DNA from: an uncultured Alphaproteobacteria bacterium
GTDB lineage: Bacteria > Pseudomonadota > Alphaproteobacteria > Rhodobacterales > Rhodobacteraceae
Assembly: GCA_963710285.1 (NCBI GenBank)
Contig: CAVPZT010000006.1
Coordinates: 1,080,838 to 1,144,837 of the forward strand
DNA length: 64,000 nucleotides
Direction of reading: 5' to 3'
A model generated the notes under the pieces. It was given only the letters and a program-made list of their open reading frames with translations. It was not told where the DNA came from and did not search any database. Position 1 is the stretch's first letter; each line of letters opens with the position of its first letter. Positions 2,501-23,783 of this stretch are shown here, piece after piece. The translations under genes and the position numbers were made by a program.

Positions 2501-2561
2501 CTCTCCGAACCCCATATTTCATTGAGTCTGTATTTGGGATCGGCCGAAAACTCACCCTTGA

Positions 2562-2580: not shown

Positions 2581-2619
2581 TTTGAGATTCCGCCCCATCA
2601 GCGCACCCGGAATTGAAAC

Positions 2620-4503: not shown

Positions 4504-4505
4504 GA

Positions 4506-5689: not shown

Positions 5690-5797
5690 GGGACGTTCCG
5701 GACCCTCGGGCTACGCGCTCAAACTCCGTCGAGTCTACGACGGCCTCCTGAAAGATGGGCCGGGAAGCGGGCATTCGCCACGAGTGCGAGCCAGTCA

Positions 5798-5855
5798 TGT
5801 CGCGACGTCCGAAAGCGACATTCACTGGATGTCGAAAGGGAATTATTTGTTGCAC
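5798..5855 (+). repeat. composite motif A at the tniB-side cargo boundary: TGTCG hairpin plus a third transposon-end-like site
   Basis: TGTCGC-gacgtccgaaa-GCGACA, then TTCACTGGA, then TGTCGAAAGGGAATTATTTGTTGCAC. The last part resembles IR-L/L2 (TGTCG.., GGGAATTAT). The overall layout recurs at 18045..18101. Confidence 0.5.
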
Positions 5856-6020
5856 TGCCGCAGGTCGGCTCCGAACCAAATCTGACGAATGCTGCACCCT
5901 GCGCGAAGTGGAGCGAGCCGCGGAAATTCGGCATTGATGGACGCAGTCACGGCCCGTTCCTTAAAATGGCCGACTTTTGCTCCGCCTCACTGGCCGGATT
6001 TTACTCCGCCGTTGACAGAT

Positions 6021-6482
6021 TCAATTGGATAAGTGGTCAGGTGCACGGTTTCGCACCGATCCGGGGATGGTACCGCCCAATCCGCCGCGTAGACGGCGCG
6101 CCAGATCGAAGAAAGCTGTCGCGTCCTGGCCGAGCGCAGCGCGGATGGTGTCGTCGACTGCCGCCCAGGCCCTACTGATCCCGGTCAGCAAGGTGCGTCC
6201 CTTTTCGGTAAGTTCGAGAACCTGTCGCCGACGCGATGCGGGATCGGTCGCACGCGTGATGTAGCCGGCGGCCAGCAGGCGGTCCGTCATGGTGCTCATG
6301 CTGGCCGAAGTGACCCCGAACGCCGAAGCGAGGTCGGTCTGAGAAACGGGGCCCGTCCGGCCCATCGCGTCGATGACGCGGGCCTGACGCGGATGGATCC
6401 CCAGCGGCGCCAATTGTCGGCGAAGCTCCGCTCTCGACAAGGTCCGCGCTGTGAAGGAACCCATGGAAGTCATGTTGGTCAA
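6021..6482 (-). CDS. MarR-family transcriptional regulator
   Basis: Intact 153-aa ORF with a winged-helix region (VSQTDLASAFGVTSASMSTMTDRLLAAGYITRATDPASRRRQVLELTEKG). It is divergent from the YHYH gene. Confidence 0.85.
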   Translation of the reverse strand: MTNMTSMGSFTARTLSRAELRRQLAPLGIHPRQARVIDAMGRTGPVSQTDLASAFGVTSASMSTMTDRLLAAGYITRATDPASRRRQVLELTEKGRTLLTGISRAWAAVDDTIRAALGQDATAFFDLARRLRGGLGGTIPGSVRNRAPDHLSN

Positions 6483-6498
6483 CTTGCATGCTAACAGT

Positions 6499-6508
6499 TA
6501 GTATACTA
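6499..6508. promoter_or_regulatory. perfect 10-bp palindrome TAGTATACTA in the marR / YHYH divergent promoter region (candidate MarR operator)
   Basis: AT-rich palindrome in the 76-bp divergent intergenic region between 6482 and 6559. Confidence 0.35.
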
Positions 6509-6558
6509 TACATTGATGAATCGCAAGCTGCCATCCATGCTCATTCGAGGGAATCACC

Positions 6559-7600
6559 ATGCTCGCAAACCCGGTCACGCAGTTCGCTGTCGCTGCTTTC
6601 CTCGCCGCCACCCTCCTGACGGCCGGCCCGGCCCTTGCGCATTCCGAGGAGGAGACCCTTGCCCGCATCGCTGCCTTCTTCGCGACCGCAAAGGTCGTGG
6701 ACGGCCCGAAGCAGGTCGATTGTACCCTGTCCGGCGGCACGGAAACGACGTGTTTTTCCATCACGGTCAGCCAAGTGCCGCAGACCTATACCCCCGGCCC
6801 ATGGTGCCCCATGAACATCTCGGACGGTCCGGAAAAGGGCGGTATCTGGTTTCTGGACGGCAAGACTGTCGACGTGGACGGCGCATTCATCGCAAATCTG
6901 GCGAAGACCTATGGCGATGCGAAATGGCAGCTTTTCGACCCCGAGACGGGCGCGGTGCGGTACACCGGCACCTTGGAAGCCTGCGAGGCCGCCGCGCGTC
7001 CCGATGTCGATCCGGCCTACCAGAATTACTGCGTGCAGTGCCTGCCGGAATACCTGCCGGCGGACGCGACGACCACCTATGTGATCCCCCTGGACGCCGG
7101 TCCCCGACGGGTGGCCGCGCTGGTGGCCGAGGCGCGCGAACCGCGGCCCTTCGGGCATCGCTTCCAATGGCGTGCGCCTTGATGGTCCCGCCCCGGTCGA
7201 TGCGATCCTCGGGGCGCACACCATCGCGCCCTTCGACGATTGCGGCGGCCATGTGAACCTCCATGAAGGCTATCACTACCACGCCGTGACGGATTGCCTC
7301 TCCGGCGCGCCGACAACGATCGCGGGGGCCGATGCCAAGGCCGTCGCGGCGCTTGGCGGCCAGATCGGCATTGCGATGGATGGCTATGCGATCTTTCCCG
7401 CATCTCATGGCCGACGGTCGCGGCGCCGGAAGGCCTTGATCGCTGCTACGGGCACGAGGCGAGAAAGCCTTGCCTACCACTATCACGTCGGTTCTGCGGG
7501 CTCGAACCAGATTCTCGGCTGTCTCGCGGCGGAAACCGGCTGCACGCTCGTGGAAGGGCAGACGGTTTGCGATGCAACCCGTCCACCGCCGCGCCCCTGA
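6559..7600 (+). pseudogene. secreted YHYH-domain protein, frame-disrupted
   Basis: Signal peptide MLANPVTQFAVAAFLAATLLTAGPALA. YHYH motifs are present (HEGYHYHAV, LAYHYHVG). The coding sequence runs through ORFs 6559..7182 and 7172..7600, with a short excursion into the 7294 frame near 7390-7470. Confidence 0.7.
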
Positions 7601-7641
7601 TGGGGACGGCATTCGTCGAAACAGACCAAGAGTATCTCTCA

Positions 7642-7967
7642 ATGAACCTACGTAACTTCAGCCTTGACCCCCGTCGCGCTGATAGGGCTGATCGGCCTGT
7701 CGCTGCCGGCTATCGGCAGAGGACGGCTCTCTGTTCGTCCCCGATCGAACTGGCCCAGTCCCAAGGCCGCCCGCAGGGTGGTCCGCAAGGCGGTCCGCCG
7801 CCGCAAGAAGCGTTCGATGCCTGCGCTGCGATCGCGGAGGGTGACGGCCTGCGCATTCAGGCTTCAGGATGACGCAAGCATCGAAGGCACCTGCCACAAA
7901 CCGCCGCAAGGTACGGCAGGGCGCTCTGGTTTGCGTGCCCAACGACGCGCCGCCGCCCAAGGGCTGA
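7642..7967 (+). pseudogene. small secreted Cys-rich protein with a GGPQGGPQGGPPP tract, frame-disrupted
   Basis: Pieced together from three frames: MNLRN.. / ..TPVALIGLIGLSLPAIG (signal peptide) / ..QGGPQGGPPPQEAFDACAAI.. / ..ACAFRLQDDASIEGTCHKPPQGTAG / ALVCVPNDAPPPKG-stop at 7965-7967. Confidence 0.35.
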
Positions 7968-8075
7968 TCCACGGGAAGCCGCGCTTTTCCAGTAGGCGAG
8001 ATCGTATCATGACTTCACCTGTCCAAACCGAACACGCTCAAAAGCGGCTTTCCTGACGCCAAAGCGCTTGGGCAG

Positions 8076-8767
8076 GTGGGTCCTGCGGTCCTGATCGTGG
8101 CGGTGCTCTGGATTGTTTCAAGTCAGGGGTATTACGCGCTTGTTTCGGCGCTCGGATTGAAGAGCGGGTATGACGGTGCGCCGGTGCTGTTCACGGCCTA
8201 CTACCTTGGCTGGACCGCGGTCGCACTTTGGCTGTTCCGTCCCTTGGTCGCCGATCGTCTGGACCGCAGCACAATTGCGCGCGAAGGGCTGGTTATGCTG
8301 CCGATTCTCGCGGGCTTTGCGCTGTTCGTGGTCTACGGCCTGCCGATGCTGCCGAGGGTTTCGGCCCTGCGCGCGCCGTCCGAGCCGCCGGAGTTCATGT
8401 TCGCCTCGGCTTGGTACTACCTGCCGAAATCGGCTGACATCCTGTTCCAGCAGACGCTCGCGGCGGGGCTCATCCTGACGGCGGCACGGGCCGGGTATCG
8501 CCTGCGCCCGATCGCCATCGGCATGGCGGTGGCGTTTGGCGGGTTCCATCTGCTTCTGGCGTTCGACGGGTTCACACCAACCTATGTCACCCGTTTCACC
8601 CTGTCCGCGACCGCGTTCGGGGCGTTGCTTCCCTATCTCTACCTGCGCCGTGCGGCGGGTTCCGCTGGGCCTATTCGCTGCATTGGGGGTTCTACGCGCT
8701 TGATGCAACGCTGACGCATTTCATCCTTGCGATCCCGCCCTGGGCGCCGAAATGGGCACCGCTCTGA
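8076..8767 (+). pseudogene. polytopic membrane protein of unknown function (weak CPBP-like FxxxH motif), one frameshift near 8655
   Basis: ORF 8076..8714 is hydrophobic throughout. The C-terminus continues in another frame (GFRWAYSLHWGFYALDATLTHFILAIPPWAPKWAPL-stop). Confidence 0.5.
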
Positions 8768-8798
8768 CCGCAGCACCGCATATTCAAGGACTATCGCC

Positions 8799-10141
8799 AT
8801 GAAGACCATTCGACTGACACTTTGGACGATCCTGCTGGGCCTGACCGGCCTGTGGGTTGCGGCCAACCTGCCGCTGCCTGACACCCTGACGCGTCATCGC
8901 AACCCGCAATCTGCTTGCTGCAGTATTCCGGTGTGCTGGCCATCGCCGCCATGAGTGTGGCGATGATCCTTGCCACCCGCTGGGCTTGGGTGGACCGTTG
9001 GCTGAACGGGCTGGATAAATCCTACCGGCTGCACAAATGGCTGGGAATTGCCGCCTTGGTGGCATCGATTGCCCATTGGGTCTTTTCCAGTGGTCCGAAA
9101 TGGGCGGTCACTCTGGGCCTGATGGAGGCCCCGACCCGGGAACCCCGCCCCGAGGCTGCGCAAGACATCGCCACGGTTCAGGATTTCTTCAACAGCCTGC
9201 GCGGCCCGGCCGAGGGGATTGGCGAATGGGCGTTTTACGCCGTGGTTGTGCTGATCGCCATCGCGCTGATCCGGCGTATTCCCTACAAGTTCTTCGCCTC
9301 GACCCATACCCTTTTGGCCGCCGCCTATCTGGCGCTGGTGTTCCACGCGACGGTTCTTCTGGAGTTTGACGCCTGGATGCAGCCGCATGGGATTGTTCTG
9401 GCGCTTTTGATGGCGGGTGGCAGCATTGCCGCCGTGCTGGCGCTGACCCGGCAGATCGGCCGTCGCCGCCGGGTGGCGGGGCGGATCGCCTCGATCCTCA
9501 ATTTTCCGTCGATGAAGGTGACCGAAGCCGAAATCACCCTGGACGCGGCATGGCCGGGGCATGATGCGGGGCAGTTTGCCTTCGTCACCTTCGACCGGAA
9601 GGAAGGCAAGCATCCCTTTACCATCGCCTCTGCCTGGAACCCGGAAACCCGGTCGATCACCGTGATCAGCAAGGGTCTGGGCGATTATACCGAACTCTTG
9701 CCGGCCAAACTGGCGGTCGGGGATGAGGTGACCGTCGAAGGGCCTTACGGGCGCTTTACCTTCGATGATGCGAAAGATCGCCAGATCTGGATCGGCGCGG
9801 GTATCGGCATCACGCCCTTCATCGCCCGGCTGAAGCATCTGGCGACCGCACCGGATGGCAAGCAGGTCGACCTGATCCATTGCGCGCCAGAGGTCGCACC
9901 GCAAGCGCGCGCCCTGCTTGACCGCGACATTGCATCGGCCAAGGCCAAACTGAGTCTGATGATCGACGGCAAGGACGGCTTTCTGACCGGGCCGCGGCTG
10001 CGGGAGATGTTTCCGGACTGGGCCACGGCCAGTGTCTGGTTCTGCGGCCCTGCCGCCTTCGGCGATGCCCTGCGCAAGGACTTGGTCGCCCACGGTCTGC
10101 GCCCCGCCGATTTCCATCAGGAACTGTTCAACATGCGATGA
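8799..10141 (+). pseudogene. ferric-reductase-like transmembrane domain fused to an FAD/NAD(P)-binding (FNR-like) domain, one frameshift near 8900
   Basis: The start (MKTIRLTLWTILLGLTGLW) is in the 8727 frame and the rest is ORF 8915..10141. It has His-bearing TM helices (YRLHKWLG, IAHWVF) followed by RxYT-like FTIAS and GIGITPF nucleotide-binding motifs. Confidence 0.7.
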
Positions 10142-10217
10142 GCGGCGGCGGCGCCACCACGCGCGGGGCATCCCCCGTGATCTGCCCCCCGAACCGCAAG
10201 ACCCCAAGGAGTCCGCT

Positions 10218-11448
10218 ATGAAACCCTATTCCCGCACGACGCAAAAAGGCCGGTCCGGTCTGCTGGCCGCGATGGTCATTTTCTGCGCACAGGCCAGCAG
10301 CGCCCAACAGATCAGCACTCCGCTGGTCGATACGATGCAGGATCAATGCTTTGATCTTGCAGGTCTGGCCATTGCCTGCCCTGCCGAGGGCGAGGCGCTT
10401 TATGGGCAGGACGCGCAGCATCCGCGCCTTGCGGCGGCCTATGCCGACAATGGCAATGGCACGGTGACAGACACCAACACCGGGTTTGTCTGGCAGAAAA
10501 CCCCGGAACCCGACCGCCTGCAATTCGCCGATGCCATCGGCTATTGCGCGGCGCTGGAGCTGGGCGGTCTGTCCAACTGGCGCGTTCCCACGATCAAGGA
10601 GCTATATTCGCTGGCCGATTTCCGCGGGGAGCTTTTGAAACCCGAAGAGGGCAGCCCGACGCCCTATCTCGACACCACCGCGTTTGACTTTGACTACCCC
10701 GATGCCCAAATGATCTTTGCCGGCCAGTATTGGAGCAGCACGCTTTACGTCAAAGGCCCGATCATGAACGGCCAGAACCAGGGCGCCTTCGGGTTCAACT
10801 TTGCCGATGGCCATATCAAGGCCTACGGCACCGGGCTTGATTTCTTCACTGGCGAAGCCGCCGCCAGCAGCGGGCTTGCCAACGGTCCGGCTGATGGCAA
10901 GGCACCCGGCAACTATGTGCGCTGCGTCAGCGGCGAAGAGGGGGTCTACGGCGTCAACGACTTTGTCGACAACGCCGATGGCACGGTGACCGACGCGGCC
11001 ACGGGCCGGATGTGGCAGCAGGCCGATGACGGCACGCGCCGCGAATGGGCCGAGGCCCTTGCCTATTGCGAGGCGCTGGATCTGGGCGGGCATCAGGACT
11101 GGTATCTGCCGAACTCCAAGGAACTGCAAAGCATCGTCGATTACGACAAGACGGATTTCCCGGCGATTGACACCAGCCGTCTTCGGCATCACCCAGGATT
11201 CCGAAACGCTCGACTACTGGACCAGCACGACCTTCGGCGACATCAAGTCCCACGCCAATGTCATCGTCTTCGGCAAGGCGCTGAGCAAGGCAGGCGATCA
11301 GACCGAGTATACCGACTGGCACGGGGCCGGTGCACAGCGGTCGTCGATCAAGACGCTGACCGGGCAGGCACTGACCGACGAAGATCTCTGTTCGATCAAT
11401 GCCTGCGACGTGGACCGGCCAGACAATCTGGTGCGCTGCGTGCGTTAG
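10218..11448 (+). pseudogene. secreted DUF1566 (Lcl C-terminal domain)-type protein, one frameshift near 11170
   Basis: Signal peptide MKPYSRTTQKGRSGLLAAMVIFCAQASSAQQ. Repeated DUF1566 signatures are present (NWRVPTIKELYSL, DWYLPNSKELQSIV). The C-terminus continues in ORF 11026..11448. Confidence 0.65.
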
Positions 11449-11533
11449 AAGCTACTTGGCACAGTGAGTGACCTCAGCCATGTGCGTCGAGGTCAGTCGA
11501 CAGGCCCGTGTCCCGGAAAGAGGAACCCAGCCC

Positions 11534-11743
11534 ATGACCATCAAGAGCATAAACGGCTGCATCGGTTGCGAGGAATGCGTGAAGTCCTGCCCCTGCGACG
11601 TGATCCGCATGGAGACGGGCAAGGCGGTGATCACCTATCCCGCCGATTGCCAGATCTGCCACCTGTGCCGGATGTATTGCCCGGTCGATGCCATCGAGAT
11701 GTCGCCCGAGAAATCCATTCCCGTCATCGTGCCCTGGGGGTAG
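11534..11743 (+). CDS. 2x[4Fe-4S] ferredoxin (69 aa)
   Basis: Two CxxCxxCxxxCP motifs (CIGCEECVKSCP, CQICHLCRMYCP). The next gene starts 3 nt after its stop. Confidence 0.85.
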   Translation: MTIKSINGCIGCEECVKSCPCDVIRMETGKAVITYPADCQICHLCRMYCPVDAIEMSPEKSIPVIVPWG

Positions 11744-11745
11744 CC

Positions 11746-12427
11746 ATGAAACTCACCGCCAAATCCGCCACCATCCTCACCGCAATCGCCGTCTTCGTCG
11801 GCCTGCCGCTGATGTTCTACGCCCTGGGCGACGCCCCGCGCCGGACGGTGCTGAAAGAGGTCATCTCCATCGCCACGCTGCTGGCCTTCGCCGCGATGCT
11901 CGGCCAGTTCTTCATGGCGCGCAGCAACACCTGGCTTCTGAGCGTCTTCAAGCCGCCGCAGATCCAGAAGGTCCACAAGTATATCGCCTATACGGCGGTC
12001 GGCGGTGATCCTGCTGCATCCCGGTTCTGATCGTGCTGCCGCGCGCGCTCGAGGGCGGTGTGCGCCCTTGGGACGCCTTCGTCACCATGATCACCGACCT
12101 TCGACAGCCTCGGTATCCTGCTGGGCCTTATCGCTTGGGCGTTGCTTCTGGTGCTGGCCGTGACCGCGTTCTTCCGCAAGCCGCTTATCAAGCGCCTCGC
12201 GACCCATTACCGCGGCTGGCGCTATTTTCATGGCGGGCTGGCAGTCAGCTTCACCGTCTTGGCCCTCTGGCATTCCATCACCCTCGGCCGCCACACCGAC
12301 CTCGTCGATGTCGGCACTGCTCGTCATGCTGGCGCTGATCGGTTTCGCCATGTTGGCGAAGCTCTACTGGGGCGGGCCGCCGAAGACGCCCCGACCGAAA
12401 CCCGTTTCCGAAGGAGCCGCGTCATGA
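11746..12427 (+). pseudogene. YedZ/MsrQ-like ferric-reductase-type membrane anchor (b-heme), several frameshifts
   Basis: Hydrophobic protein spread over the frames of ORFs 11464..12030, 12142..12552 and 12230..12427. His residues sit in TM helices (KVHKYIAY, YFHGGLAV, LALWHSI). Its stop overlaps the next start (ATGA at 12424). Confidence 0.55.
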
Positions 12428-14176
12428 CCGCGCCAGCCGACACCACCGCCCCGACCCGCCGCGACGTTCCTCGCGCTTTCCGGTGCTGCCGCCGGGCTGG
12501 CCTCGCTCGGGATGCAGGCGTGGGCGCAGAACGCCGTCGAGATCGACCCTGATGCCATCACCAACACCGACCATGCCACCGACGTCCTGGTGATCGGCGG
12601 CGGCATGGCCGGGCTTTTCGCCGCGGTTAAGGCGCATGACGCGGGCGCTGCCACCATGATCGTCTCGAAGGGGCGATTGGGCTCTTCAGGCCTGACGCCC
12701 TTCGGCAAGGGATTCTTCGTCTTCGACCCAGCGACCGAGACCGGCACCATCGACGATTTCGTCGATGCGGTCTCGCGCTCGGCGCTCGGTACCAACAACC
12801 CGGTCTATACCCGGCAACTGGCCGAGCATTCGATCGATCGCGCAGCCGAATTGCGCGACTGGGGGTATTTCGATCAGACGCTGGCCAACCGTCCCTTCAT
12901 GCGGCCCATCGAAGAACGCGGGATCCCCCTGCTCGAACGGGTGGTCATCACGCATCTCATCAAGGAGGACGGTAGGATCGCGGGGGCGGCGGGCTTCCGG
13001 CTCGACGCCGAGGAGACCGTCACGATCCGCGCCAAATCGGTGATCCTCTGCACCGGTGCGGGCGGCTTCAAGCCAAACGGTTTCCCCCTGGGCGACCTGA
13101 CCCATGACGGCACGGTGATGGCCTACCAGATCGGCGCCAAGGTCACCGGCAAGGAATGGAACGACGGCCATTCCACCCGCAGCGTCAACCCTGCCGCCTG
13201 CTACGACAACTGGGGCGACATGTTCGAGCGGATCCCCTCGACCAACGGCGTCGAGGTGCATCACGATCTGGGCGTGGACATCAACTACCGCGCCTATGTG
13301 CTGGGAAACCCGGTCGAAGGCGGGCCGGGTGCTGCGCAACCGACGGAAGAGATTGCGGGCGGGCCTTTCGTGCCAGAGGAATTTCAGGGGAGAGGTCAAC
13401 CGCCTGGAGCGGCGGATGGAGAAGGCGGGGCACCCGGCGGCCGACCTCCGGGCAAGGGTGGTGCCCCCGGCGGGCCGCCCCCCGGCTTCGCGGCCAGTGC
13501 CAATGTCGGCGGGGCCTCTGCGGGCATGGCGATACACAAGTCCGAAGGGCTGGTGCCGGTGGACGGACACTGCGCCTCCAACATCGCCGGGCTTTACGCG
13601 GCGGGCGATGCACTCGGCAGCCATATGGCGGGCGGGATCTACACCCAGGTCGGCTCGTCGCTGGCCGGTTCCGCCGTGCAGGGCGCCATTGCGGGCGAGG
13701 CGGCAGCGGAATATGCCGCGGGCGTGGACGTGCCGACCATCTCCGACGCGCGCCTGACCGAGATCACCGACGAGATCCTCGCCCCCCTGCGGCGTGAGGC
13801 GGGCTATGGTCCGGCCTGGGTCACCCAGACACTGCAAGGGATCATGATCCCGAACTTCGTCCTCTACATCAAGAAAGCCGCGATGATGCAGGCAGCGCTC
13901 GCCTATATCGAGGAGTTGCGCGACCACCATACGCCGATGCTGCGCGCGGCCAACTTGCACGAACTGCGGCTCGCATTCGAGACCCGCAACATGATCCTTT
14001 CGGCCGAGATGAAACTGCGCGCCTCATTGATGCGCACTGAAAGCCGATGCAGCCACTACCGGCTGGATTATCCGGACTTGGATGACACGAATTGGCGCGC
14101 CTGGATCAACATCTATCGCGGCGAGGACGGAACGATGCAGCTTGAAAAACAGCCCTTCGATAGCTGGCCCGGATAG
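12424..14176 (+). pseudogene. Tat-exported FAD-binding flavoprotein (fumarate reductase/succinate dehydrogenase/AprA-like), frameshift inside the signal peptide
   Basis: MTAPADTTAPTRRD then, after a 1-nt shift, FLALSGAAAGLASLG (twin-arginine signal). ORF 12512..14176 carries DVLVIGGGMAG, GLYAAGD and the C-terminal RTESRCSHYRLDYPDLDD motif. Confidence 0.75.
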
Positions 14177-14831
14177 ATCGGCGGTAGGGGTGTGGCCCTT
14201 CGGAGCGATGCAGCGCGGTGAGCGATGCTGTCCCCGGGCGGTGTGCGCCCTCCATCCTTTGCACGGAATTCTGAGTATGCGCGCGGGGCGATGTGCGATG
14301 AGCAGATGGCGATTGCATTCTCCGCCATAACGCAGCCGCCAAAGCTGCACTCCCCTACGGCACCCATCGAGGATCGGGCGGACTCTCGGTTGACCTGAGC
14401 CTGTCGGCGGACGCACGGGCTCAAAGCATGCTAAAGTGGTCGCGACGCGCCGAGACCTGCCACATGAGTTGCTCACTCCGACGGCCGCTTCGTCCCGCGA
14501 CGCCGACATCACTATTTTCGAGACCGGCGCCTTGCCATCTTCGAAAGCGCTTCGTCGTGCCGCGTGGCGGCGAGTCTCTCCGGCCAACGATGGTACAAAC
14601 CGAAACGCGTTTTGGATTGGCGCCAAGTCCAAAGCGACCCAACATCTCGCATCTCCGCGCCTGAGTTTTCACGATTCATCCATGGCCACGAGGCAGATCC
14701 TGAACGAAAGTGATCCGTAGGTAACAGCGCGGTCTATCATGTACTTGACGCTCGCCCGCATCACATCGTTGCCACATTCGAGAATTCTACTATGACGCGA
14801 CTGCAACGGATTGGTTCGGCGGAGAAAACCT

Positions 14832-16379
14832 ATGCTGCGTTTCACCATATCGCTTGTCGCAGGCGCCTTCTTCTCCACCGCCTCGGCAATAGCGCAGACA
14901 CCGGTCGAACTGGCACGGCATGCGATCGATACCGGCGACTTCGCGGCGCTTGAAACCCTACTCGCGGATCAGACCGAATCGGCGCACGAGACACGAGACT
15001 TATCTGCGCTGCGCGGCCTTTTTGGAACGTTGTTTGAAACGGCGAACTCCGCGCGTCTGGAGCGAGAGGAGGCATGGCTGGCGGCGTATCCCAACTCGGC
15101 CTACGCGGCGTCGGCGCTCGGCTGGTCACACATGCATCTGGCTGTTCTGGCGCGCGGGACAGCGTCAACGCGGTTCACCTCCGGCGAGGCGTTTGCTGCG
15201 CATCGCGAAGAATTGTCGGTGTCGCTGGCGATGACGGATCGGGCCCTCAAGGGCGATCCCGATTTCGTACCGGCGCTCGACCTTGCAATCGTGCTTGCCA
15301 TGTATGGTGGCGGCCAGTCCGCCGTTTCGTCCCTCGTTGAACGAACACTGTCGGTCGCACCAGACCCGCATGCCCTCGTCCTCGGGCTGACGGCGCTCTC
15401 TCCGCGCTGGGGCGGGAGTGTCGGGCAGCAGTTCGCATTGTGCGACACCGCAAAGGATAAGCTGCCAGGCTTCGATGACGACATCTGCCTGATCTATGTC
15501 ACCTTCTCGGAAGGGCTGGACGGTGAGATGCGTCAGAAGGCGCTCGCCGCGCTCGAAAAACGCGACGAGTCCTTGCTCGACTTCGCGCGCGCGGACGCCT
15601 ATCGCCACGAATGGCGCGGCCGACCCGGGGCCGCGGAGAAGTCGATGCAATTCCTCATGCAGAGGATCGGGCCGGGTGCGGGTTTCGACGCCCTCGAAAG
15701 CGATCTTCGCTTGATCGCCCATACCTTCAGGGATCCCTTCTTTGAGATCGATGCCGAGGATGCCATAGTGGCCGCGCTGAGGGAGACGCTGCGCGACAGC
15801 CCCGAAGATTATCGCGTTCTGGGACGGCTTCTTGCCGGCATCTTCGACAATAGCCGCCCGGACGTTGCACTGGAACAGGCGGACGAGGCGCGCGCGCTGT
15901 GGCGCGCGATGCTTGTCCGGGGGCGCTACAATCCCGAGGTCTGGGCGTCCGGCGAACGCCTGGAGCGGTATCTCGGGAGCTGGACCAAACCAGCGCTGAC
16001 AGGTCCCTATGCCGTCAACGAGATCTACTACAGCAATCACGGTTCCAACCCGCTCAGACAGTATGTCATTGACCTTTTCCGGTTGCACGAAATGGCGCGC
16101 CGGCCGGAAACGCTTCCTGCAGGCACCACGCTCGACGACCTCGGCGACGATGTCCTCCTTTGCCCGATGTTCCGCGCGCAGAGGCTTTTCGCCGCTATTT
16201 GCGAGCGTTCGTCGCGGGAGCGCGGATGCAGTTCGGCGGGGGCGGACGCCAACGTGCCCGACGAGGTCCGCCGCCTGATGTCCAGGACCGAAGCCTGCCG
16301 TTGGGAGCGGACTGCACCGGTCGCGGAACTCAGGTTCCAGCCGGTTTCGGTTTCACACTTCCTCGGGGATGACAAATGA
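14832..16379 (+). CDS. secreted protein of unknown function (DUF4034-like helical repeat), paralog 1
   Basis: Intact ORF with signal peptide MLRFTISLVAGAFFSTASAIAQ. It resembles the next gene along its whole length, including the C-terminal motif CPM.R..RL....C....C......C. Confidence 0.6.
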   Translation: MLRFTISLVAGAFFSTASAIAQTPVELARHAIDTGDFAALETLLADQTESAHETRDLSALRGLFGTLFETANSARLEREEAWLAAYPNSAYAASALGWSHMHLAVLARGTASTRFTSGEAFAAHREELSVSLAMTDRALKGDPDFVPALDLAIVLAMYGGGQSAVSSLVERTLSVAPDPHALVLGLTALSPRWGGSVGQQFALCDTAKDKLPGFDDDICLIYVTFSEGLDGEMRQKALAALEKRDESLLDFARADAYRHEWRGRPGAAEKSMQFLMQRIGPGAGFDALESDLRLIAHTFRDPFFEIDAEDAIVAALRETLRDSPEDYRVLGRLLAGIFDNSRPDVALEQADEARALWRAMLVRGRYNPEVWASGERLERYLGSWTKPALTGPYAVNEIYYSNHGSNPLRQYVIDLFRLHEMARRPETLPAGTTLDDLGDDVLLCPMFRAQRLFAAICERSSRERGCSSAGADANVPDEVRRLMSRTEACRWERTAPVAELRFQPVSVSHFLGDDK

Positions 16380-17908
16380 TCCGGATTGCACTGACGCTGA
16401 TATTGCTCATGTTGGCGCACCCGTCGCTGGCGCAGGATCCCGTCGATCAAGTGCGCGCGCTTCTCGACGCCGGTGATGTCGACGGGCTTGAGCAAACCCT
16501 TCGCGCCCTGCACGATGCGCAGCGCGCGGGCGGGAGCGCGGCCGCACTTCGCGCGGTCAACGCGCGGCTCTTCGAGACCACCCACCCGGAGCGAGGTGAA
16601 GTGATCCGGCGCTGGCAGGAGAGTCGTCCGGATTCGGTCTACGCCGCCACGGCCGCGGCGTGGCGGGCGATCAAACTGTTCGAAGCGGTCGGAAACCCCG
16701 ATGACCGCTATCAGGTCCCTGTTTCCCCCGCGGGACTGGCGGCCTATGACAAGGCGAAGAGCGAAGCCCAAACGGCGATGGAGCGCGCGCTCGACCGCGC
16801 GGGCGACTATCCCCCGGCGCGCGATGCCTGGTTCCGGCTGCGTGCGGTCTCTCCGAAACGCGACGGGGTTGGCGAGATGGCCGAGGCCTTGATTTCCAGC
16901 GCGCCAGAGGCTGAGAGCATCCGTGTCATTCTCGCCGCGACGCAATATTGGTCTCCGCATCCCGGGCAGGACGTCCTCGGCGCCTGCCTCACCTACGCGC
17001 CCCTGACACGGGAATATGACGTTGACCGCTGCGTCATCGAGGCGGCCATTGCCTACGATGTCGGAAGCGACCTGCATGACAAGGCCGCCGAGGCGCTAAT
17101 AGGGATGGATGATCCCGCGCTCGACCGGGCACATCTTCAACAGGCGGTATGGGCGAGCGGCCCGGACAGCTGGGATCTCGACCGGATCAAAACCTGGTAT
17201 CGCCGCATGCCGCTTTCGACTGCCGATCTGAACTGGTACGTGACCACCGGTCGCAGGATCGCGTCGATCGGCAAGCGTCCGGAAATCCTCGTCGCCGGAT
17301 CGAACCGGGCGCTCGACGAAATCGCGGTTCGGATACCTGACAATCCTCTGGACCCGTCACTGCGGGCCTTGGAAGCGGCGTTGCGTCTCGAACGATATCT
17401 GCGCGACCATGATGCGGAGGACCTCGCGCTCGCCCGGGAAGCCTGGGAGGCTGGCGTGGTGTACGGCGGCACCTCCGCAGACTATTGGCAAGCGGGCAGC
17501 CTCTTGGCCACTGTCGACAGGGCGCAATGGGACGTCGCGGACGCATTCGTGTTCCACGAGAACGCGATCGCGTATTCCGGGCAGAGCGTCGCCAATCTCG
17601 TGTTCGCCTTTTACTGGATGGATGAAGCGCGCATTGCCGCCGAGATGGCCGACGGCACGTCGGGAGCGGGCGAAGCACGGGAACGGCTCCAATGTCCGAT
17701 GCTCCGCGTGGCCCGGCTTGCCGACGCGCTTTGCAAGAAGGACCCGTCTGCGGCCATGTTCTGCGATCCCGCGCAGCCCCCCTTCGCGCACGGGCCCGAG
17801 GTGCTCGCGTCAGGGCGCGAAACCTGCTCGGAAGTCGCCAACGCACGGCTGTCGTCCATCAAGTTCGAACCCGTTCCCTACGCAGACGTGTCGTTGCCTT
17901 GGAAATAG
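16376..17908 (+). CDS. secreted protein of unknown function (DUF4034-like), paralog 2
   Basis: Intact ORF overlapping the previous stop (ATGA), with signal peptide MIRIALTLILLMLAHPSLAQ. It has the same N-terminal pattern (..DAGD.D.LE..L..) and the same C-terminal Cys pattern as paralog 1. Confidence 0.6.
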   Translation: MIRIALTLILLMLAHPSLAQDPVDQVRALLDAGDVDGLEQTLRALHDAQRAGGSAAALRAVNARLFETTHPERGEVIRRWQESRPDSVYAATAAAWRAIKLFEAVGNPDDRYQVPVSPAGLAAYDKAKSEAQTAMERALDRAGDYPPARDAWFRLRAVSPKRDGVGEMAEALISSAPEAESIRVILAATQYWSPHPGQDVLGACLTYAPLTREYDVDRCVIEAAIAYDVGSDLHDKAAEALIGMDDPALDRAHLQQAVWASGPDSWDLDRIKTWYRRMPLSTADLNWYVTTGRRIASIGKRPEILVAGSNRALDEIAVRIPDNPLDPSLRALEAALRLERYLRDHDAEDLALAREAWEAGVVYGGTSADYWQAGSLLATVDRAQWDVADAFVFHENAIAYSGQSVANLVFAFYWMDEARIAAEMADGTSGAGEARERLQCPMLRVARLADALCKKDPSAAMFCDPAQPPFAHGPEVLASGRETCSEVANARLSSIKFEPVPYADVSLPWK

Positions 17909-18044
17909 GGTCAATCGATGAGGGAAGGGGTGGAGGGATGGAACTGCAAAGCTGGTCGGACGCGCTCTCGCTGAAGGTACGATCTATCGACGTTCCTTTC
18001 GCCTTCCGCCCTCTGGTCGGTCGGGCCGACAGTTGTAGGGTTGC

Positions 18045-18101
18045 TGTCGGCGAAGCTTCTTTACGGCCGACATTAGTGGACAGTCAGTGTCGAGCCGACG
18101 G
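18045..18101 (+). repeat. composite motif B at the tniA-side cargo boundary
   Basis: TGTCGGC-gaagcttctttacg-GCCGACA, then TTAGTGGA, then cagtcag-TGTCGAGCCGACGG. It has the same layout and orientation as 5798..5855 (shared CGACATT..TGGA followed by TGTCGA). Confidence 0.5.
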
Positions 18102-18409
18102 CATCCGAACTTGTCAACATCCGCGCTGTAAGGACATTCCCCTCTCAACACGGCAAAGAATCTATTTCCACCCGAGTTGCTGTTTAACGCGGTCGCTAAC
18201 AGCCGAGGCTGTGTGGAAGCCCATGAAGAGACTGACACACCGGCACAACTCTGATGATGTGACCGTCCTCCTTTGTGGATCGTCGCAGACCCACCTTGGC
18301 ACATCGATGCCGTCGGGGGGCGGTCACATCATCAAAGCCGACAAACACCTATCGGCATTTCAGAAATTCTAATGCGATGCCTCGGGAACGCGTGCCGCGG
18401 AATTGAAAA

Positions 18410-18433
18410 CGCCGGCAGATGAATCTGCCGGCG
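18410..18433 (-). terminator. hairpin terminator downstream of tniA
   Basis: CGCCGGCAGA-tgaa-TCTGCCGGCG, a 10-bp stem about 30 nt after the tniA stop, followed on the minus strand by TTTTCAATT. Confidence 0.65.
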
Positions 18434-18462
18434 TGTCCCTCCTGGGGTTAATCGATGAAGCG

Positions 18463-20565
18463 CTACCCGCGGAATGCCCACCCGCTGCCGTGCTCCTCCG
18501 GCCCGCCGCTGCCCGGTCCCGTTTGCTCGACGTCGGAGGCCTCATCGCGAATGTCGAGGACTGAACCCTGAGGAAGGATGACCCTCCCGGGCCCATTCTC
18601 AGAAAGCGCCAGTTTCGGGGACGTCGGCACGATCGCGAACGATGCGAACAGGGATTCCTCGAGCTTTTGCAGGTATTCGACCGAATAGGGCTTGTCGATC
18701 AGTTGGAACTGCAGCGAACGGTGCTGGTTCAGAGCCTTGATCGCCGCCATCGCTTCGCGCACAACGTCTTCGTTCCAGGCGGCCTGCTTCGGCGAGCGGG
18801 AGCGAAGATCGCGCCTGGTGGCGATCCAGACCTGTGCGTGCACTCCGTCGAGCCCTTCCTCGCTCGCACGCACTTCCTGCCACGACCCGTCGATCTGCAC
18901 TTCGATCGCGCCGATGTCCGCCTCATCCCAGCGGATGCTGAAGTGGCGTGGGCCGCCGCTGACAATGCTGTGCGCCAGCGCCTCGTTCTGATGGCGAACC
19001 CCCAGGACCGTTATCCCCTCCTTCGTTCCCTTCATCGTTCGGGAGATCCCGAACGCGAGCCGTTTCCGGCGTTTGTCGGGCGCTGCTTTCAGGGGGTAGT
19101 TGCCCTCGCGGTGATCCCGCTCCCACTGCTCGCGCGGCGTCCGGCCACCCAGCCCCCGGCGGGGGGTATTGTGGTAGATGTCGACGATCCAGCGCACCAG
19201 AATGCGGCAGATGTCTTCCGCATCGAGGCAGGCACGCTTCTCGGCCGGATGGTCGCCCTTTTCGACGACATCCGAGAAGGTTCGCCCGGACAGAAGCGGT
19301 AGCAGATTGCTTCCGATGGTCCCGAAGATCCGCTCCCCGGTTCCGCGCATGGTTGCCGCACCGGCGATGGTGCGCAAATGCGTCATGCCGAGGTCGCAGC
19401 AAGTGTCGGTGAAGGCCTTGGCTTTGAACGCACTTCCGTTGTCCGTGGCAATCAGTTCCGGCGTGCCGGCCTCGCTCCAGCGGCACTTCGCACCGGTCGC
19501 ATCGGAGATCTCGCCCTTGTCGCTCACCACCATTCTCAGACAGTTGGCGGCGGAACTTTCCCTTGGGTTTTTCGTCAGCATGAAGCCGAGGATGATCTTG
19601 GTTCGGCAGTCGATCGCGAGCGTGGCCCACCAGCGCGCCTTCTTGTCGTCCAGCCCGAGGCCCTGAAGCTCCTCGTCGGTGAAGAGTTTCAGCAGCCCAG
19701 CCTTTGCCATGACTGTCATTAGGTCGATCTTCGTCTCATCCATCTCGACCCGCTCGAGCGGGCGCGAGACCTCGATGCCCTTGTTGACGGGCCGATGATC
19801 GTTGATCGTCTTCTCGATCCCGTACCGCGCGAGGGTGACCGAGAACTTGTCCAGACCGTCGATATACTGGCGAATGGCGTGCCGCCCCGGCACCCTGAGG
19901 ACAGGAAGCCCGGCCGCTTCGCGACGCTTGTTCTCATCGTGGAACGCGTCCTTGACTGCCTTCTCGGTCAGCAGCTTCGTCATTCGGTTCAGTGTGAGAT
20001 AGTTTTCGTTCACGGTCTTCGCCAGCAGGGCGTTGGTTTTGATGTCATAACCGTTGTCCCTGCGCCCCCGCAGGGAAGTACGGGGCGCCAGACCGATCTT
20101 TCCGTCTCTCTCGAAGTCGCGCACGTAGCCCAGCAGGGTCCTCGGATGGACGCCAGAGACCGCCGCCACCAGCTTCCCACCGTGCCTTTTGGTTGCGGCG
20201 GCATCAGAACCGGGATCCCGCAGCATGTCCTGCTGATCGACCCTGTCCTTCATGTATGCGACTGCACCCCCGGCGATCGATGCCTGCTTGGCCGAGATCG
20301 AACTCTCCGTCCTATGGACGAGCCCATTGTTGAATTGGTCGAGGAAAGACTGGACGAGAGCGAACCTCAGGTCGACGACTTCCTTGTCCTCCGGACGCAG
20401 GGCGGCCAGACAGTCGTCGCCGATCGGCTTGGACTCGCGGCGGATCACCGTGTCCGGACTGAAGAAACTGACCTTGTGCTTGATCCGACCGCTCGACGAG
20501 AGTTCGTTGATGATCTGGAACGGGAAGGTCTGTGCCAGCCCCTTGCCGTCCACAGGGACGAGCAC
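18463..20565 (-). CDS. tniA: TniA/TnsB-like DDE (retroviral-integrase-fold, Mu-type) transposase, 700 aa
   Basis: Intact ORF with a GTG start. The catalytic core pattern is present (VEMDETKIDL ... ELIATDNGSAFKA ... GTGERIFGT), followed by a Mu-transposase-like C-terminal domain. Confidence 0.9.
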   Translation of the reverse strand: MLVPVDGKGLAQTFPFQIINELSSSGRIKHKVSFFSPDTVIRRESKPIGDDCLAALRPEDKEVVDLRFALVQSFLDQFNNGLVHRTESSISAKQASIAGGAVAYMKDRVDQQDMLRDPGSDAAATKRHGGKLVAAVSGVHPRTLLGYVRDFERDGKIGLAPRTSLRGRRDNGYDIKTNALLAKTVNENYLTLNRMTKLLTEKAVKDAFHDENKRREAAGLPVLRVPGRHAIRQYIDGLDKFSVTLARYGIEKTINDHRPVNKGIEVSRPLERVEMDETKIDLMTVMAKAGLLKLFTDEELQGLGLDDKKARWWATLAIDCRTKIILGFMLTKNPRESSAANCLRMVVSDKGEISDATGAKCRWSEAGTPELIATDNGSAFKAKAFTDTCCDLGMTHLRTIAGAATMRGTGERIFGTIGSNLLPLLSGRTFSDVVEKGDHPAEKRACLDAEDICRILVRWIVDIYHNTPRRGLGGRTPREQWERDHREGNYPLKAAPDKRRKRLAFGISRTMKGTKEGITVLGVRHQNEALAHSIVSGGPRHFSIRWDEADIGAIEVQIDGSWQEVRASEEGLDGVHAQVWIATRRDLRSRSPKQAAWNEDVVREAMAAIKALNQHRSLQFQLIDKPYSVEYLQKLEESLFASFAIVPTSPKLALSENGPGRVILPQGSVLDIRDEASDVEQTGPGSGGPEEHGSGWAFRG

Positions 20566-20721
20566 AAAGGATTCGGCCGTTCGGGCGAGAAGGCGGAACG
20601 CGACTGCGTCGATCGTGACGCGGTCGTATCGGTAACGCCATCAACTGGTATGGCGCCGCCCTCTCCGATCTGCATCGCGAAGTTTCCGGCGGCAGGGCGG
20701 CGGCACGCCGTTGACATCCAA

Positions 20722-20747
20722 GGGGGGCGCAGGTGACTGCGCCCCCC
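20722..20747. repeat. perfect 11-bp GC stem-loop in the transposon right arm
   Basis: GGGGGGCGCAG-gtga-CTGCGCCCCCC, about 155 bp upstream of the tniA start, with no U-tract on either strand. Confidence 0.6.
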
Positions 20748-21297
20748 CCTGACGGCTCCCGGTTCCCGAAGCCAAAAGGCGGCAAGGTATGATCGCCTTC
20801 AGCCCCTCGACGCGCGCGCGATGATCAGGACAGATTGGGAGTGTCTGAGGACGCGCTTTTACACCCTGATCCACAATCGCACCGAAAGAGCGGCCACTGA
20901 CCAGTTCCGCTGGCTCCACCCGGAGTCCCAGAACCCCGACGGCCGCGCCGCCGCGAAGCAGGGAAAAATCGGCTTCGCCGCCGCCTACGAGGATGGCAGG
21001 GCCGCCCGATCCTCCCCCCGATCACATCGCGGTCGTCTGCGAGGTTTCGATCGCCTTTGGCGAAGCCGACACCGAACGCATCGCCTGCCCTCACCTCCGC
21101 AGCCGCGCCGGGACCTTTGCCCCTTCGAAACCCGCACCGGCCTCGGCATGGTCGAGGTGACCGAAGGATATCGCTTTTCGCTTCGACCGTCGCAAAATCA
21201 GAAGTCGGAGGTTTGCATTTCACCTGCCACCGCAATAAATCCTGCATGTATGACAGCGAATTTTTCTGCTCAGCAATTTCAATAGTTTAGCAGCGGA

Positions 21298-21316
21298 GGG
21301 CGATAATATCTGGACA
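21298..21316 (-). repeat. subterminal repeat R2 (putative TniA binding site)
   Basis: Its reverse complement TGTCCAGATATTATCGCCC matches L2 (2562..2580) at 16/19. Confidence 0.6.
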
Positions 21317-21334
21317 AAAGGGTGCCAAAAACCC

Positions 21335-21365
21335 CCGAAAAGGGCGTTTTCTCCCAGACTCCTCA
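21335..21365 (-). repeat. right terminal inverted repeat (IR-R)
   Basis: See IR-L: 22/31 identity, and the terminus ends in ...CA. Confidence 0.75.
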
Positions 21366-21370
21366 GTTGA
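21366..21370. repeat. right copy of the 5-bp target-site duplication GTTGA
   Basis: Identical to 2465..2469 and immediately abutting IR-R. Confidence 0.8.
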
Positions 21371-21385
21371 AAAGCGGCGCTCACC

Positions 21386-23650
21386 TCACCCGCATTTCGA
21401 ATGGCCGCAGGAGGGGCAGGTCATGCAGCCTTCGATCATCTGCATCCCGAACTGTCCGCAGGACGGACAGGCAGGCCCGCGCGGGGATTCGCCCACCGCC
21501 ATGAGCTGCGCCTTCGGGTCGGATTTCAGGCCGAGCCCCTCGCCCTCGATGAAGCCGATGGCGATCATGTGGCGTTCGATCACGCCGCCGATGGCGGCGA
21601 GGATGGAGGGGATATAGCGACCTTGCATCCAGGCCCCGCCGCGCGGGTCGAAGACGGCTTTCAGCTCTTCCACGACGAAGCTCACATCGCCCCCGCGCCG
21701 GAACACCGCCGAGATCATCCGCGTCAGAGCGACCGTCCAGGCGAAATGCTCCATGTTCTTGGAGTTGATGAAGACTTCGAAGGGCCGCCGGTGCCCGCCC
21801 TGCACTATGTCATTGATGGTGATGTAGATCGCGTGCTCGCTGTCCGGCCATTTGAGCTTGTAGGTCGCCCCTTCCAGCGCCTGCGGCCGGTCCAATGGCT
21901 CGGAGAGATAGACGACCTCCGCCCCGCTGTCGGCCTCGGGCACCTTCTCCTCTTTCTCGGAAACCGAGAGGACGGAGCCTGTCACCGCGTTCGGGCGGTA
22001 GGTGGTGCAGCCCTTGCAGCCCTGATCCCAAGCCGCCATGTAGACGTCCTTGAAGGCCTCGAAGCTGATTTCCTCGGGGCAGTTGATGGTCTTCGAAATC
22101 GACAAATCCACCCATTTCTGCGCCGCCGCCTGCATCCGCACATGGTCGAGCGGCGGCAGGGTCTGTGCGTTGACGAAATGCTCCGGCAAGGGCTTGTCGC
22201 CGAACCGTTCGCGCCAGAGCTGGACGGCGTAGTCGACCACCTCTTCCTCGGTCCGCGAGCCGTCCTTTTGCAGGACCTTGCGCTTGTAGGCATAGGCAAA
22301 GACCGGCTCGATGCCAGAAGAGACGTTGCCGGCATAGAGGCTGATCGTGCCCGTGGGCGCGATGGAGGTCAGAAGCGCGTTGCGGATGCCGTCCTTGGCG
22401 ATGGCGTCGCGCACATCGGCGTCCATATGCTTCATGTTGCCCGAGGCGAGGAACTTCTTCGCGTCGAAGAGCGGGAAGGCCCCCTTTTCCTTCGCCAGAT
22501 CGACCGAGGCGAGGTAGGCCGCCCGCGCGATGCGGTGCAGCCAATCTTCGGTCTGCTTCGCGGCCTTCTCAGAACCGTACCGAAGGCCGACCATCAGAAG
22601 CGCGTCCGCCAAGCCGGTGACGCCGAGCCCGATCCGGCGCTTGGCCTGCGCCTCGGCCTCTTGCTGAGGCAGCGGGAAACGCGAGGCATCGACGGTGTTG
22701 TCCATCATCCGCACAGCCGTCCGGGTGAGATCTTCGAGCGCATCGAGGTCGAGCGCCGCGCCCTTGCCGAAGGGGTCCGTGACCAGCCGCGCGAGGTTGA
22801 TCGAGCCCAGAAGACAGGCGCCGTAAGGCGGCAGGGGTTGTTCGCCGCAGGGGTTGGTGGCGGCGATGGTCTCGACATAGTTAAGGTTGTTCGCGGCGTT
22901 GATGCGGTCGATGAATATCACACCCGGCTCGGCATAGTCGAAGGTCGCCCGCATGATCCGGTTCCAGAGATAGCGCGCCTCGACCGTCTTGTAGACCTTG
23001 CCGTCGAAGATCAGTTCCCAAGGCTTGTCGGCCTTCACGGCTTCCATGAACGGGTCGGTGACGAGGACGGAGAGATTGAACATCCGCAGCCGCGCCGCGT
23101 CCCGCTTGGCCTCGATGAAGGCCTCGATATCGGGGTGATCGCAACGCATGGTCGCCATCATCGCGCCGCGACGGGAGCCTGCCGACATGATGGTGCGGCA
23201 CATCGCGTCCCAGACATCCATGAAGCTCAAGGGACCGGAGGCGTCAGCGGCGACACCCTTCACCTCGGCACCACGTGGCCGGATGGTGGAGAAGTCATAG
23301 CCGATGCCGCCGCCCTGCTGCATCGTCAGCGCCGCCTCTTTCAACCCGTCGAAGATGCCGCCCATGTCGTCGGGGATCGTGCCCATGACGAAGCAGTTGA
23401 AGAGCGTGACGCTGCGGCCGGTGCCCGCACCCGCTGTGATGCGCCCGGCGGGGAGGTATTTGAAATCCTCAAGGGCGGCGTAGAAGCGGTCTTCCCACGC
23501 GGCCGGGTCCGTTTCGACGGCGGCCAGCGCGCGGGCGATGCGTCGCCAGCTATCCTCGACCGTGCCGTCAATGGGGGTGCCGTCCGCCTGCTTGAAGCGG
23601 TATTTCATGTCCCAGATCTGCTCGGCAATCGGGGCGGCGAAACGGGTCAT
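21386..23650 (-). CDS. nrdJ: class II (adenosylcobalamin-dependent) ribonucleotide reductase
   Basis: Intact ORF 21386..23734. The likely start is ATG 23650 (MTRFAAPIAEQIWDMKYRF), with GAGGA 9 nt upstream. It has an RNR catalytic core (NPCGEQPLPPYGACLLGSINL, SIAPTGTIS) and a C-terminal Cys ribbon. Confidence 0.9.
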   Translation of the reverse strand: MTRFAAPIAEQIWDMKYRFKQADGTPIDGTVEDSWRRIARALAAVETDPAAWEDRFYAALEDFKYLPAGRITAGAGTGRSVTLFNCFVMGTIPDDMGGIFDGLKEAALTMQQGGGIGYDFSTIRPRGAEVKGVAADASGPLSFMDVWDAMCRTIMSAGSRRGAMMATMRCDHPDIEAFIEAKRDAARLRMFNLSVLVTDPFMEAVKADKPWELIFDGKVYKTVEARYLWNRIMRATFDYAEPGVIFIDRINAANNLNYVETIAATNPCGEQPLPPYGACLLGSINLARLVTDPFGKGAALDLDALEDLTRTAVRMMDNTVDASRFPLPQQEAEAQAKRRIGLGVTGLADALLMVGLRYGSEKAAKQTEDWLHRIARAAYLASVDLAKEKGAFPLFDAKKFLASGNMKHMDADVRDAIAKDGIRNALLTSIAPTGTISLYAGNVSSGIEPVFAYAYKRKVLQKDGSRTEEEVVDYAVQLWRERFGDKPLPEHFVNAQTLPPLDHVRMQAAAQKWVDLSISKTINCPEEISFEAFKDVYMAAWDQGCKGCTTYRPNAVTGSVLSVSEKEEKVPEADSGAEVVYLSEPLDRPQALEGATYKLKWPDSEHAIYITINDIVQGGHRRPFEVFINSKNMEHFAWTVALTRMISAVFRRGGDVSFVVEELKAVFDPRGGAWMQGRYIPSILAAIGGVIERHMIAIGFIEGEGLGLKSDPKAQLMAVGESPRGPACPSCGQFGMQMIEGCMTCPSCGHSKCG

Positions 23651-23783
23651 CGGCAGCGGTCCTCGGGCTTCTTCGGGGATTACCGCACCGTGGGCGCGGG
23701 ACGCGAGGATACTCCTCGCCCGTATCAGGGTCAACTTGATCTCGCGGTGCCGGGCGCTAGAATGTCAAGGTCTTGGGGGTGCG

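Follow-up and report, generated by a model that had tools for sequence, protein, structure and literature searches.

The element between the kinase gene and nrdJ

The window analysed here, a stretch of 64,000 nucleotides (contig CAVPZT010000006.1, assembly GCA_963710285.1) from an uncultured bacterium of the family Rhodobacteraceae, contains a Tn7-like element of 18.9 kb (2470-21365) that is flanked on both sides by the 5-bp duplication GTTGA. The element lies between a gene for a FGGY-family sugar kinase and nrdJ, which encodes the adenosylcobalamin-dependent (class II) ribonucleotide reductase (Table 1). The nrdJ product scored 583.6 bits against the TIGR02504 NrdJ_Z model (cut-off 400). The stop codon of the kinase gene (2458-2460) is located 4 nt ahead of the left duplication and nrdJ is intact on the other side, and therefore neither of the flanking genes is disrupted; the empty site would be a gap of ~24 nt between these two convergent genes. 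The initial annotation of this locus had placed the tniA-proximal end of the element 20 bp past the nrdJ stop and had reported a duplicated pentamer. Both observations were correct, as the distance from the right terminus to the nrdJ stop codon (TCA on the + strand, 21386-21388) is 20 nt and GTTGA was found immediately outside both termini.

The termini are inverted repeats. The left terminus starts with TGTCGAATCC and the right terminus reads TGAGGAGTC from outside to inside, and both contain the exact 12-mer AACGCCCTTTTC at an equal distance from the tip, which was found without mismatch only at these two termini in the window. Further related sites are present in each arm (2562-2584 on the left and 21293-21336 on the right), the left sites being spaced and the right sites packed. 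The same asymmetry was observed in the related elements described below, where spaced sites occupy the tniQ-proximal end and packed sites the nrdJ-proximal end, and the TGA terminus is shared by the relative at locus L112, whose duplication is verified. The Tn7-type combination of a 5-bp duplication with asymmetric ends that carry several predicted transposase sites was thus seen in the window copy and, in the same pattern, in eight relatives.

The proteins encoded by the window copy include the TnsB-type, TnsC/TniB and TniQ/TnsD components of the Tn7 family. TniQ and TniB scored 63.7 bits against PF06527 (cut-off 27) and 45.3 bits against PF05621 (cut-off 22.4), respectively, and neither of them matched an NCBIfam family. 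The window TniB is 36-60% identical to the TniB encoded beside TniA in the relatives. TniA gave a weak rve match under the Pfam cut-off (E = 1.7e-6); it has 187 homologs, many of them full-length with PF00665 and PF09299, and the invariant acidic residues of the homolog alignment are kept in it.

Table 1. Features of the window copy and its flanks, and of the small open reading frames (ORFs) at four related loci (L numbers)
Feature	Position	Strand	Remarks
FGGY-family sugar kinase gene, left flank	1081..2460	+	PF21546, PF00370; convergent with nrdJ when the site is unoccupied
Left target-site duplication	2465..2469		GTTGA, directly before the left terminus
Left end	2470..2584	+	Terminal repeat 2470-2498 (TGTCGAATCC...AACGCCCTTTTC), second site 2562-2584
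tniQ	2665..4503	-	612 aa, predicted TnsD-type target selector; PF06527
tniB	4506..5492	-	TnsC-like AAA+ regulator, 328 aa; PF05621, PF13401
Cargo	5493..18462		~13 kb, genes on + strand; separates tniA from tniB
tniA	18463..20640	-	TnsB-like DDE transposase, 5'-truncated; first usable start GTG at 20565 (18463-20565, 700 aa)
Right arm without gene	20641..21292		Intact relatives hold cargo and tnsA between right end and tniA
Right end	21293..21365	-	Three tightly packed putative TniA-site repeats; tip, outside to inside, TGAGGAGTCTGGGAGAAAACGCCCTTTTC
Right target-site duplication	21366..21370		GTTGA, +16 to +20 past the nrdJ stop
Spacer	21371..21385		15 nt between duplication and nrdJ stop, non-conserved; variable among 30 nrdJ 3' flanks
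nrdJ stop and last ~57 nt	21386..21445	-	Encodes ...EGCMTCPSCGHSKCG and stop; candidate TniQ recognition region
nrdJ	21386..23734	-	Class II ribonucleotide reductase, intact; PF02867, PF00317, PF12637
Two small ORFs	L074:9435-10358; L083:9424-10329; L080:8990-9913; L106:2911-3838		Between tniA and the nrdJ-proximal end

Related elements behind nrdJ in Rhodobacterales

Outside the genus of the window, the homologs of TniA (34-62% identical) were all found in Rhodobacterales, and a scan of species-representative genomes yielded 80 loci. The ends of the related elements were mapped 16 to 26 nt past the nrdJ stop in ~24 genomes belonging to at least 14 genera of this order, with locus L046 as the single outlier in offset. 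When the 20 loci with contiguous tniA-tniB-tniQ were placed against the nrdJ of their own genomes, 10 were on the same contig and strand as nrdJ and 9-42 kb downstream of it. The loci L036 and L031 are broken by contig ends and yet have a right-type end at nrdJ, and in 7 of the 80 loci nrdJ is located within 2.3 kb of tniA. The orientation was constant, the packed-site (right) end being towards nrdJ, so that the insertions are orientation specific and keep a fixed spacing from a conserved site on the chromosome. The recurrence of these ends marks the 3' end of nrdJ as a true attachment site and strongly supports the Tn7-style homing to it that the initial annotation had proposed, and the tabulation of neighbours that had been suggested there as a check showed distance and orientation to be kept among the nrdJ-linked loci, apart from the offset of L046.

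In eight intact relatives, an identical 5-bp duplication was found beside the nrdJ-proximal end and beyond tniQ (GTGTT, TGTTG, CTGAT, ACTGC, ACCAG, GGTGT, GGCCA and TTGAA), which proves them to be single elements of roughly 17-47 kb; matching of duplications at both ends was unsuccessful for L038 and L049. The order in intact members is nrdJ, packed right end, cargo, tnsA, tniA, tniB, tniQ and left end. The left end is 100-200 bp from the tniQ stop, the tns genes point away from nrdJ, and 9-42 kb of cargo parts them from the nrdJ-proximal end. This position of the cargo was recognised because inverted-repeat matching in the relatives, over the 6 kb that precede tnsA, detected no right end. Hence, the earlier statement that the transposase-proximal end faces nrdJ is true of the window copy, where this arrangement is the product of a deletion (see below), and not of intact relatives, where the tns genes are at the far end.

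An ORF of ~230 aa was present directly upstream of tniA in ~70 of the 80 loci, often overlapping the tniA start. Its profile matched the Tn7 TnsA structures 1f1z and 1t0f (E = 4e-4) over the region of the catalytic residues D114 and K132. In addition, 7 of 17 members matched PF08722 and one matched the NCBIfam model TnsA_like NF033179 at 2e-7. Because the relatives carry this TnsA-like ORF, the family is fully Tn7-like and not Tn5053-like.

The repeated occurrence behind nrdJ might be ascribed to one ancient insertion that was inherited vertically and diverged, without repeated homing. The relic right end in genome G003, of the same genus as the window, is ~85% identical to that of the window copy, which is about equal to the divergence of the adjacent nrdJ and fits such descent. 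However, each of the genomes examined has its own 5-mer beside the element (ATAAC in G003, GTTGA in the window, and eight others), the offsets shift by a few nt and there are several unrelated-looking types of end sequence. Furthermore, this TniA is present in only 1 of 43 same-genus genomes, and the elements of L074 and L080 are 85% identical though they are in different genera. As the duplications differ, a single ancient insertion is already contradicted, and we regard it as highly improbable. The variation of duplications, spacers, end sequences and cargo among genomes indicates separate insertion events instead.

Within the same genus, relic ends were found at the same offset from the nrdJ stop in G003, G018 and G022, with different flanking bases, and behind them no intact tni genes were detected; the genes present there were an IS5-type gene and others, housekeeping genes among them. 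In G003, the gene of an IS5-family (DUF4096) transposase lies ~300 bp from the relic right end (L022:466-960) and may mark the route by which that element was destroyed. In G013 (L008), also of this genus, the kinase gene directly adjoins nrdJ and there is no element.

Separate insertions could also accumulate at a passive hotspot, a place made favourable by a terminator structure or by the short distance that separates convergent genes rather than by reading of nrdJ by TniQ; the empty site of the window copy, a convergent gap, would be safe for any insertion. The flanks speak against this. The left flank is variable, and the FGGY kinase had no match in any of the 80 related loci, so the kinase gene is not a shared target and nrdJ is the sole shared neighbour. 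The sequence of the 15-20 nt that separate the duplication from the stop changes from genome to genome, the coding end of nrdJ is the only part that is shared, and the packed-site end is always towards nrdJ. A passive hotspot therefore appears very unlikely, and these features favour a target within the nrdJ coding end.

At three loci, ends lie back to back. In L110:16100-16260 (Rhodobacter sp. CZR27), a left end (...CCAACA) is separated by 5 nt from the packed right-type end that comes next (TGTTGAACGG...); in L044, the relic of a right end lies immediately past the element's own left end and duplication; and L028:10744-12792 contains a second element with tniQ past the end of the first. Such stacking reflects tandem or successive insertion into a single site.

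TniQ, the nrdJ tail and target selection

The size of TniQ, which had been noted as that of TnsD, is accompanied by a matching architecture in the AlphaFold model (mean predicted local distance difference test score, pLDDT, 89.9). The model shows a helical and zinc-finger core at ~residues 1-310 followed by five strand-helix-turn-helix units at residues 320-612, and the residues C100, C103, C132 and H135 of a Cys3-His zinc finger are invariant in 35 homologs. The best Foldseek matches were TniQ structures of CRISPR-associated transposons (9gs9, 6lnd and 6uvn; types I-F3 and V-K), to which TniQ is ~12% identical; they covered the core only, and no Tn7 TnsD structure was among the matches. The TnsD-like protein-guided selectors were defined as having a core of ~300 aa (Hel1, zinc finger, linker and Hel2) and multiple C-terminal helix-turn-helix (HTH) domains (Faure et al, 2023, PMC10293859), and the predicted fold of the window TniQ corresponds to this architecture. 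In a quick TniQ tree, nrdJ-linked elements were found in both deep clades, and for this reason nrdJ targeting looks ancestral to the family.

The 3' flanks of nrdJ from 30 genomes were compared. The last ~57 nt of the gene are strongly conserved, most columns at 70-90% or above, and encode a Cys-rich tail with the consensus ...EGCMTCxxCGHSKC, and the DNA past the stop showed no conservation. The centre of the duplication is ~20-25 nt from the start of the conserved block. In Tn7, the footprint of TnsD extends from ~+23 to +58 from the insertion point, within the coding end of glmS, and the geometry at nrdJ is very similar to it.

Taken together, we consider with a probability of about 85% that the window element is a member of a large Rhodobacterales family of Tn7-like elements that uses the 3' end of nrdJ as attachment site under the direction of TniQ, and that this copy has since decayed. 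Intact members encode the endonuclease TnsA (~230 aa), the TnsB-like TniA, the TnsC-like TniB and a TnsD-type TniQ of ~500-620 aa. By analogy with TnsD of Tn7 at glmS, the conserved last ~50-60 nt of the nrdJ reading frame are most likely recognised by the C-terminal HTH array of TniQ, after which TniB would be recruited by TniQ and the element inserted by TnsA and TniA under the direction of TniQ. The 5-bp duplication would be centred ~15-23 nt past the nrdJ stop. The orientation of insertion is constant, the right end with its packed sites being next to nrdJ, and nrdJ remains intact. The window copy would have arrived by this route. The sequences themselves show the site, its offset and orientation, the duplications, the membership of the family and the defects, and the reading of nrdJ by TniQ and the order of recruitment are inferred.

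Several observations weigh against this reading. At least three relatives (L033, L040 and L069) sit elsewhere than at nrdJ, and six of the 20 contiguous loci are unplaceable owing to contig breaks. The exact empty site for the window copy was not found among the genomes compared, the nearest (G013) having a spacer of 7 nt as against ~24 nt. The end in L046 (Oceaniglobus indicus) begins only ~4 nt past the nrdJ stop. TniQ as the reader of the nrdJ sequence is inferred by analogy. Finally, there are seven loci (L030, L046, L074, L080, L083, L099 and L106) in which tnsA-tniA point towards nrdJ. Neither tniB nor tniQ was detected near them, nor anywhere in the five of their genomes that were searched, and the model leaves this arrangement unexplained.

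With regard to L046, its nrdJ 3' end (near 9044) encodes the tail ...CGFSKCTG before the stop, which suggests that a small deletion joined the end region to nrdJ. In L115-L117 (Roseovarius sp. E0-M6) and in genome G079 (Roseovarius pacificus), the nrdJ matches are split into pieces in open frames of 1221-1279 aa and the gene may hold an intein; the offset of the element is still normal there.

The seven inverted loci fall in at least three TniA clades. They have the packed-site end at nrdJ, at the usual offset except in L046, and their tnsA-tniA pair ends 1.7-2.3 kb from nrdJ. The stretch from tniA to the nrdJ-proximal end (1.7-2.3 kb) yielded no remnants of tniB or tniQ. In four of the seven, this gap encodes two conserved small proteins (137-167 aa) without a match to any Pfam family. 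Homologs of the first of them are encoded upstream of tnsA in the Cereibacter/Rhodobacter elements L108 and L110 and just inside the right end in L112. The inverted loci may be recurrent rearranged relics or a non-autonomous lineage.

These loci bear on the question of whether something other than TniQ selects nrdJ, either the two small proteins (~137-167 aa) encoded near the right end in many members or a host factor. Elements that stand at nrdJ with tnsA, tniA and the small ORFs in the apparent absence of tniB and tniQ would be in agreement with such a selector, and so would the homologs of the first small protein that intact members encode ahead of tnsA or close to the right end. On the other hand, every complete element with verified duplications has a large TniQ with an HTH array, and the loci that lack TniQ also lack TniB and may be relics that lost these genes after insertion. 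A selector other than TniQ is thus considered unlikely, and TniQ is retained as the probable reader of the nrdJ tail.

Decay of the window copy and comparison with known elements

The window copy differs from its intact relatives in several ways. The homology of its TniA to the closest relatives begins at ...DRVTID, and ~17 N-terminal codons and the native start are gone. Although TnsA belongs to the family, the window copy lacks it: a full-sensitivity profile search in all six frames found no tnsA remnant between tniA and the right end, and no TnsA-like match was found anywhere in the source genome. Furthermore, tniA is next to tniB in 60 of the 80 related loci but 13 kb away from it here, so their separation by cargo is a derived state. 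A search for a second, truncated tniA upstream of tniB (5489-5950) gave no significant match. The simplest reading is that a deletion ran from inside the right arm into tniA and that insertions between tniA and tniB came later; a single deletion would account for the loss of tnsA, of the cargo at the right end and of the initial ~17 tniA codons, and for this reason tniA abuts the nrdJ-proximal end in this copy. The window copy is probably immobile and, as the genome has no helper copy, probably stays where it is. The same kinase flank is present on a metagenome contig (L118), whose TniQ is 98% identical and whose layout upstream of tniB is similar to that of the window copy, including a YHYH-domain gene; this indicates that the decayed state is common to a natural population.

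In likeness to Tn7, intact members of the family combine a TnsA-like endonuclease, a TnsB-like DDE transposase, a TnsC-like AAA+ protein and a TnsD-like TniQ with C-terminal HTH units. They also share with it the 5-bp duplication, the asymmetric ends with repeated transposase sites (predicted here), insertion behind a conserved housekeeping gene at ~20 nt from its stop, with the gene left intact, the single orientation and tns genes that point away from the target gene. The claim that the geometry is the same as in Tn7 thus stands for offset, orientation and reading direction and fails for the cargo, which lies between the target-proximal end and tnsA in the nrdJ family, whereas that of Tn7 lies between the tns genes and the far end. 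Further differences are the target (nrdJ instead of glmS), the apparent lack of TnsE or a second selector in the nrdJ family, the low sequence similarity, as given above for the TnsA profile and for TniQ against the solved TniQ structures, and, in the window copy, the missing tnsA and the truncated tniA.

The window copy alone resembles Tn5053/Tn402 in having TniA, TniB and TniQ and no TnsA, and membership of that group was considered and rejected. The tniQ stop is just 195 bp from the left end, which leaves no space for the resolvase gene tniR, and insertion is behind a chromosomal gene, nrdJ, and not in a res or par site. In addition, TniQ has 612 aa here as compared with ~400 aa, and the intact relatives at nrdJ carry TnsA.

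Ribonucleotide reductase genes are known targets of Tn7-like elements. The attachment site is reported to be nrdB in Acinetobacter (A. baumannii and relatives) and Guyparkeria (PMC11014353) and nrdD in archaea and Firmicutes (bioRxiv 10.1101/2025.07.27.667033), and according to the authors such targeting arose independently several times (PMC11014353; bioRxiv 10.1101/2025.07.27.667033). The nrdJ family resembles these in that a ribonucleotide reductase gene end is the target of TniQ/TnsD-type homing, and differs from them in its Rhodobacterales hosts and in using the 3' end of the non-homologous class II nrdJ, the others being class I nrdB and class III nrdD. Literature searches, with subscription journals outside their scope, found no report that links nrdJ with Tn7-like elements or TniQ, or TniQ with Rhodobacterales. 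The catalogue of Benler et al (2021) lists Rhodobacterales TnsB entries, and the available part of its supplement contains neither 'ribonucleotide' nor 'nrdJ'. The suggestion in the initial annotation that nrdJ could be a new attachment site is therefore upheld, and the site is provisionally taken as undescribed. A bolder view, which we find unlikely, is that the elements form an undescribed order-wide branch of Tn7-like elements. In this branch, a gene for ribonucleotide reductase would have been captured as attachment site independently for the third time, and the cargo would lie on the opposite side as compared with Tn7. The branch would include a recurrent derivative, reduced to tnsA, tniA and the genes of the two small proteins, that could be mobilised in trans as a non-autonomous lineage or reach nrdJ by a route independent of TniQ.

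The tail of nrdJ and the TniQ of 500-620 aa make up a well-supported new pair of attachment site and selector for the Tn7 family, and the many natural variants of both partners offer material for studying how the HTH arrays of TnsD-type proteins read DNA. The findings are also in line with the published idea that ribonucleotide reductase genes have been chosen repeatedly as safe harbours. For the annotation of the source genome, the local element is to be entered as a decayed, probably immobile copy.

The cargo of the window copy encodes a ferric-reductase-like protein, an Lcl_C protein, a fumarate-reductase-like flavoprotein and two paralogs of ~515 aa. A 23-nt inverted repeat at 18249-18337, its arms 87% complementary and 43 nt apart, lies ~125 nt from the tniA stop and looks like a terminator. 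It overlaps the last cargo ORF (stop 18372) at the 3' end.

The DNA behind nrdJ is a predictable island site in roseobacters and other Rhodobacterales, with cargo that includes type I-C CRISPR-Cas, type I restriction-modification and Dcm/Vsr-linked defence genes. The element at nrdJ in Rhodovulum tesquicola (L030:40-4214) and that of L028, which is nearly identical, carry a type I-C CRISPR-Cas set (Csd1/Cas8c, Cas7 and Cas1) immediately ahead of tnsA-tniA; the presence of Cas1 makes this set look like defence cargo and not like a guide-RNA targeting module. The closest TniA relatives (L108:1-7918 and L110:1-7909) have genes for a Dcm methylase, Vsr, HATPase_c_3 and Z1 proteins upstream of tnsA, with DUF4420/AIPR in addition in L110, and these are apparently cargo. 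Type I restriction-modification genes (HsdM and HsdR) are found upstream of tnsA in L074.

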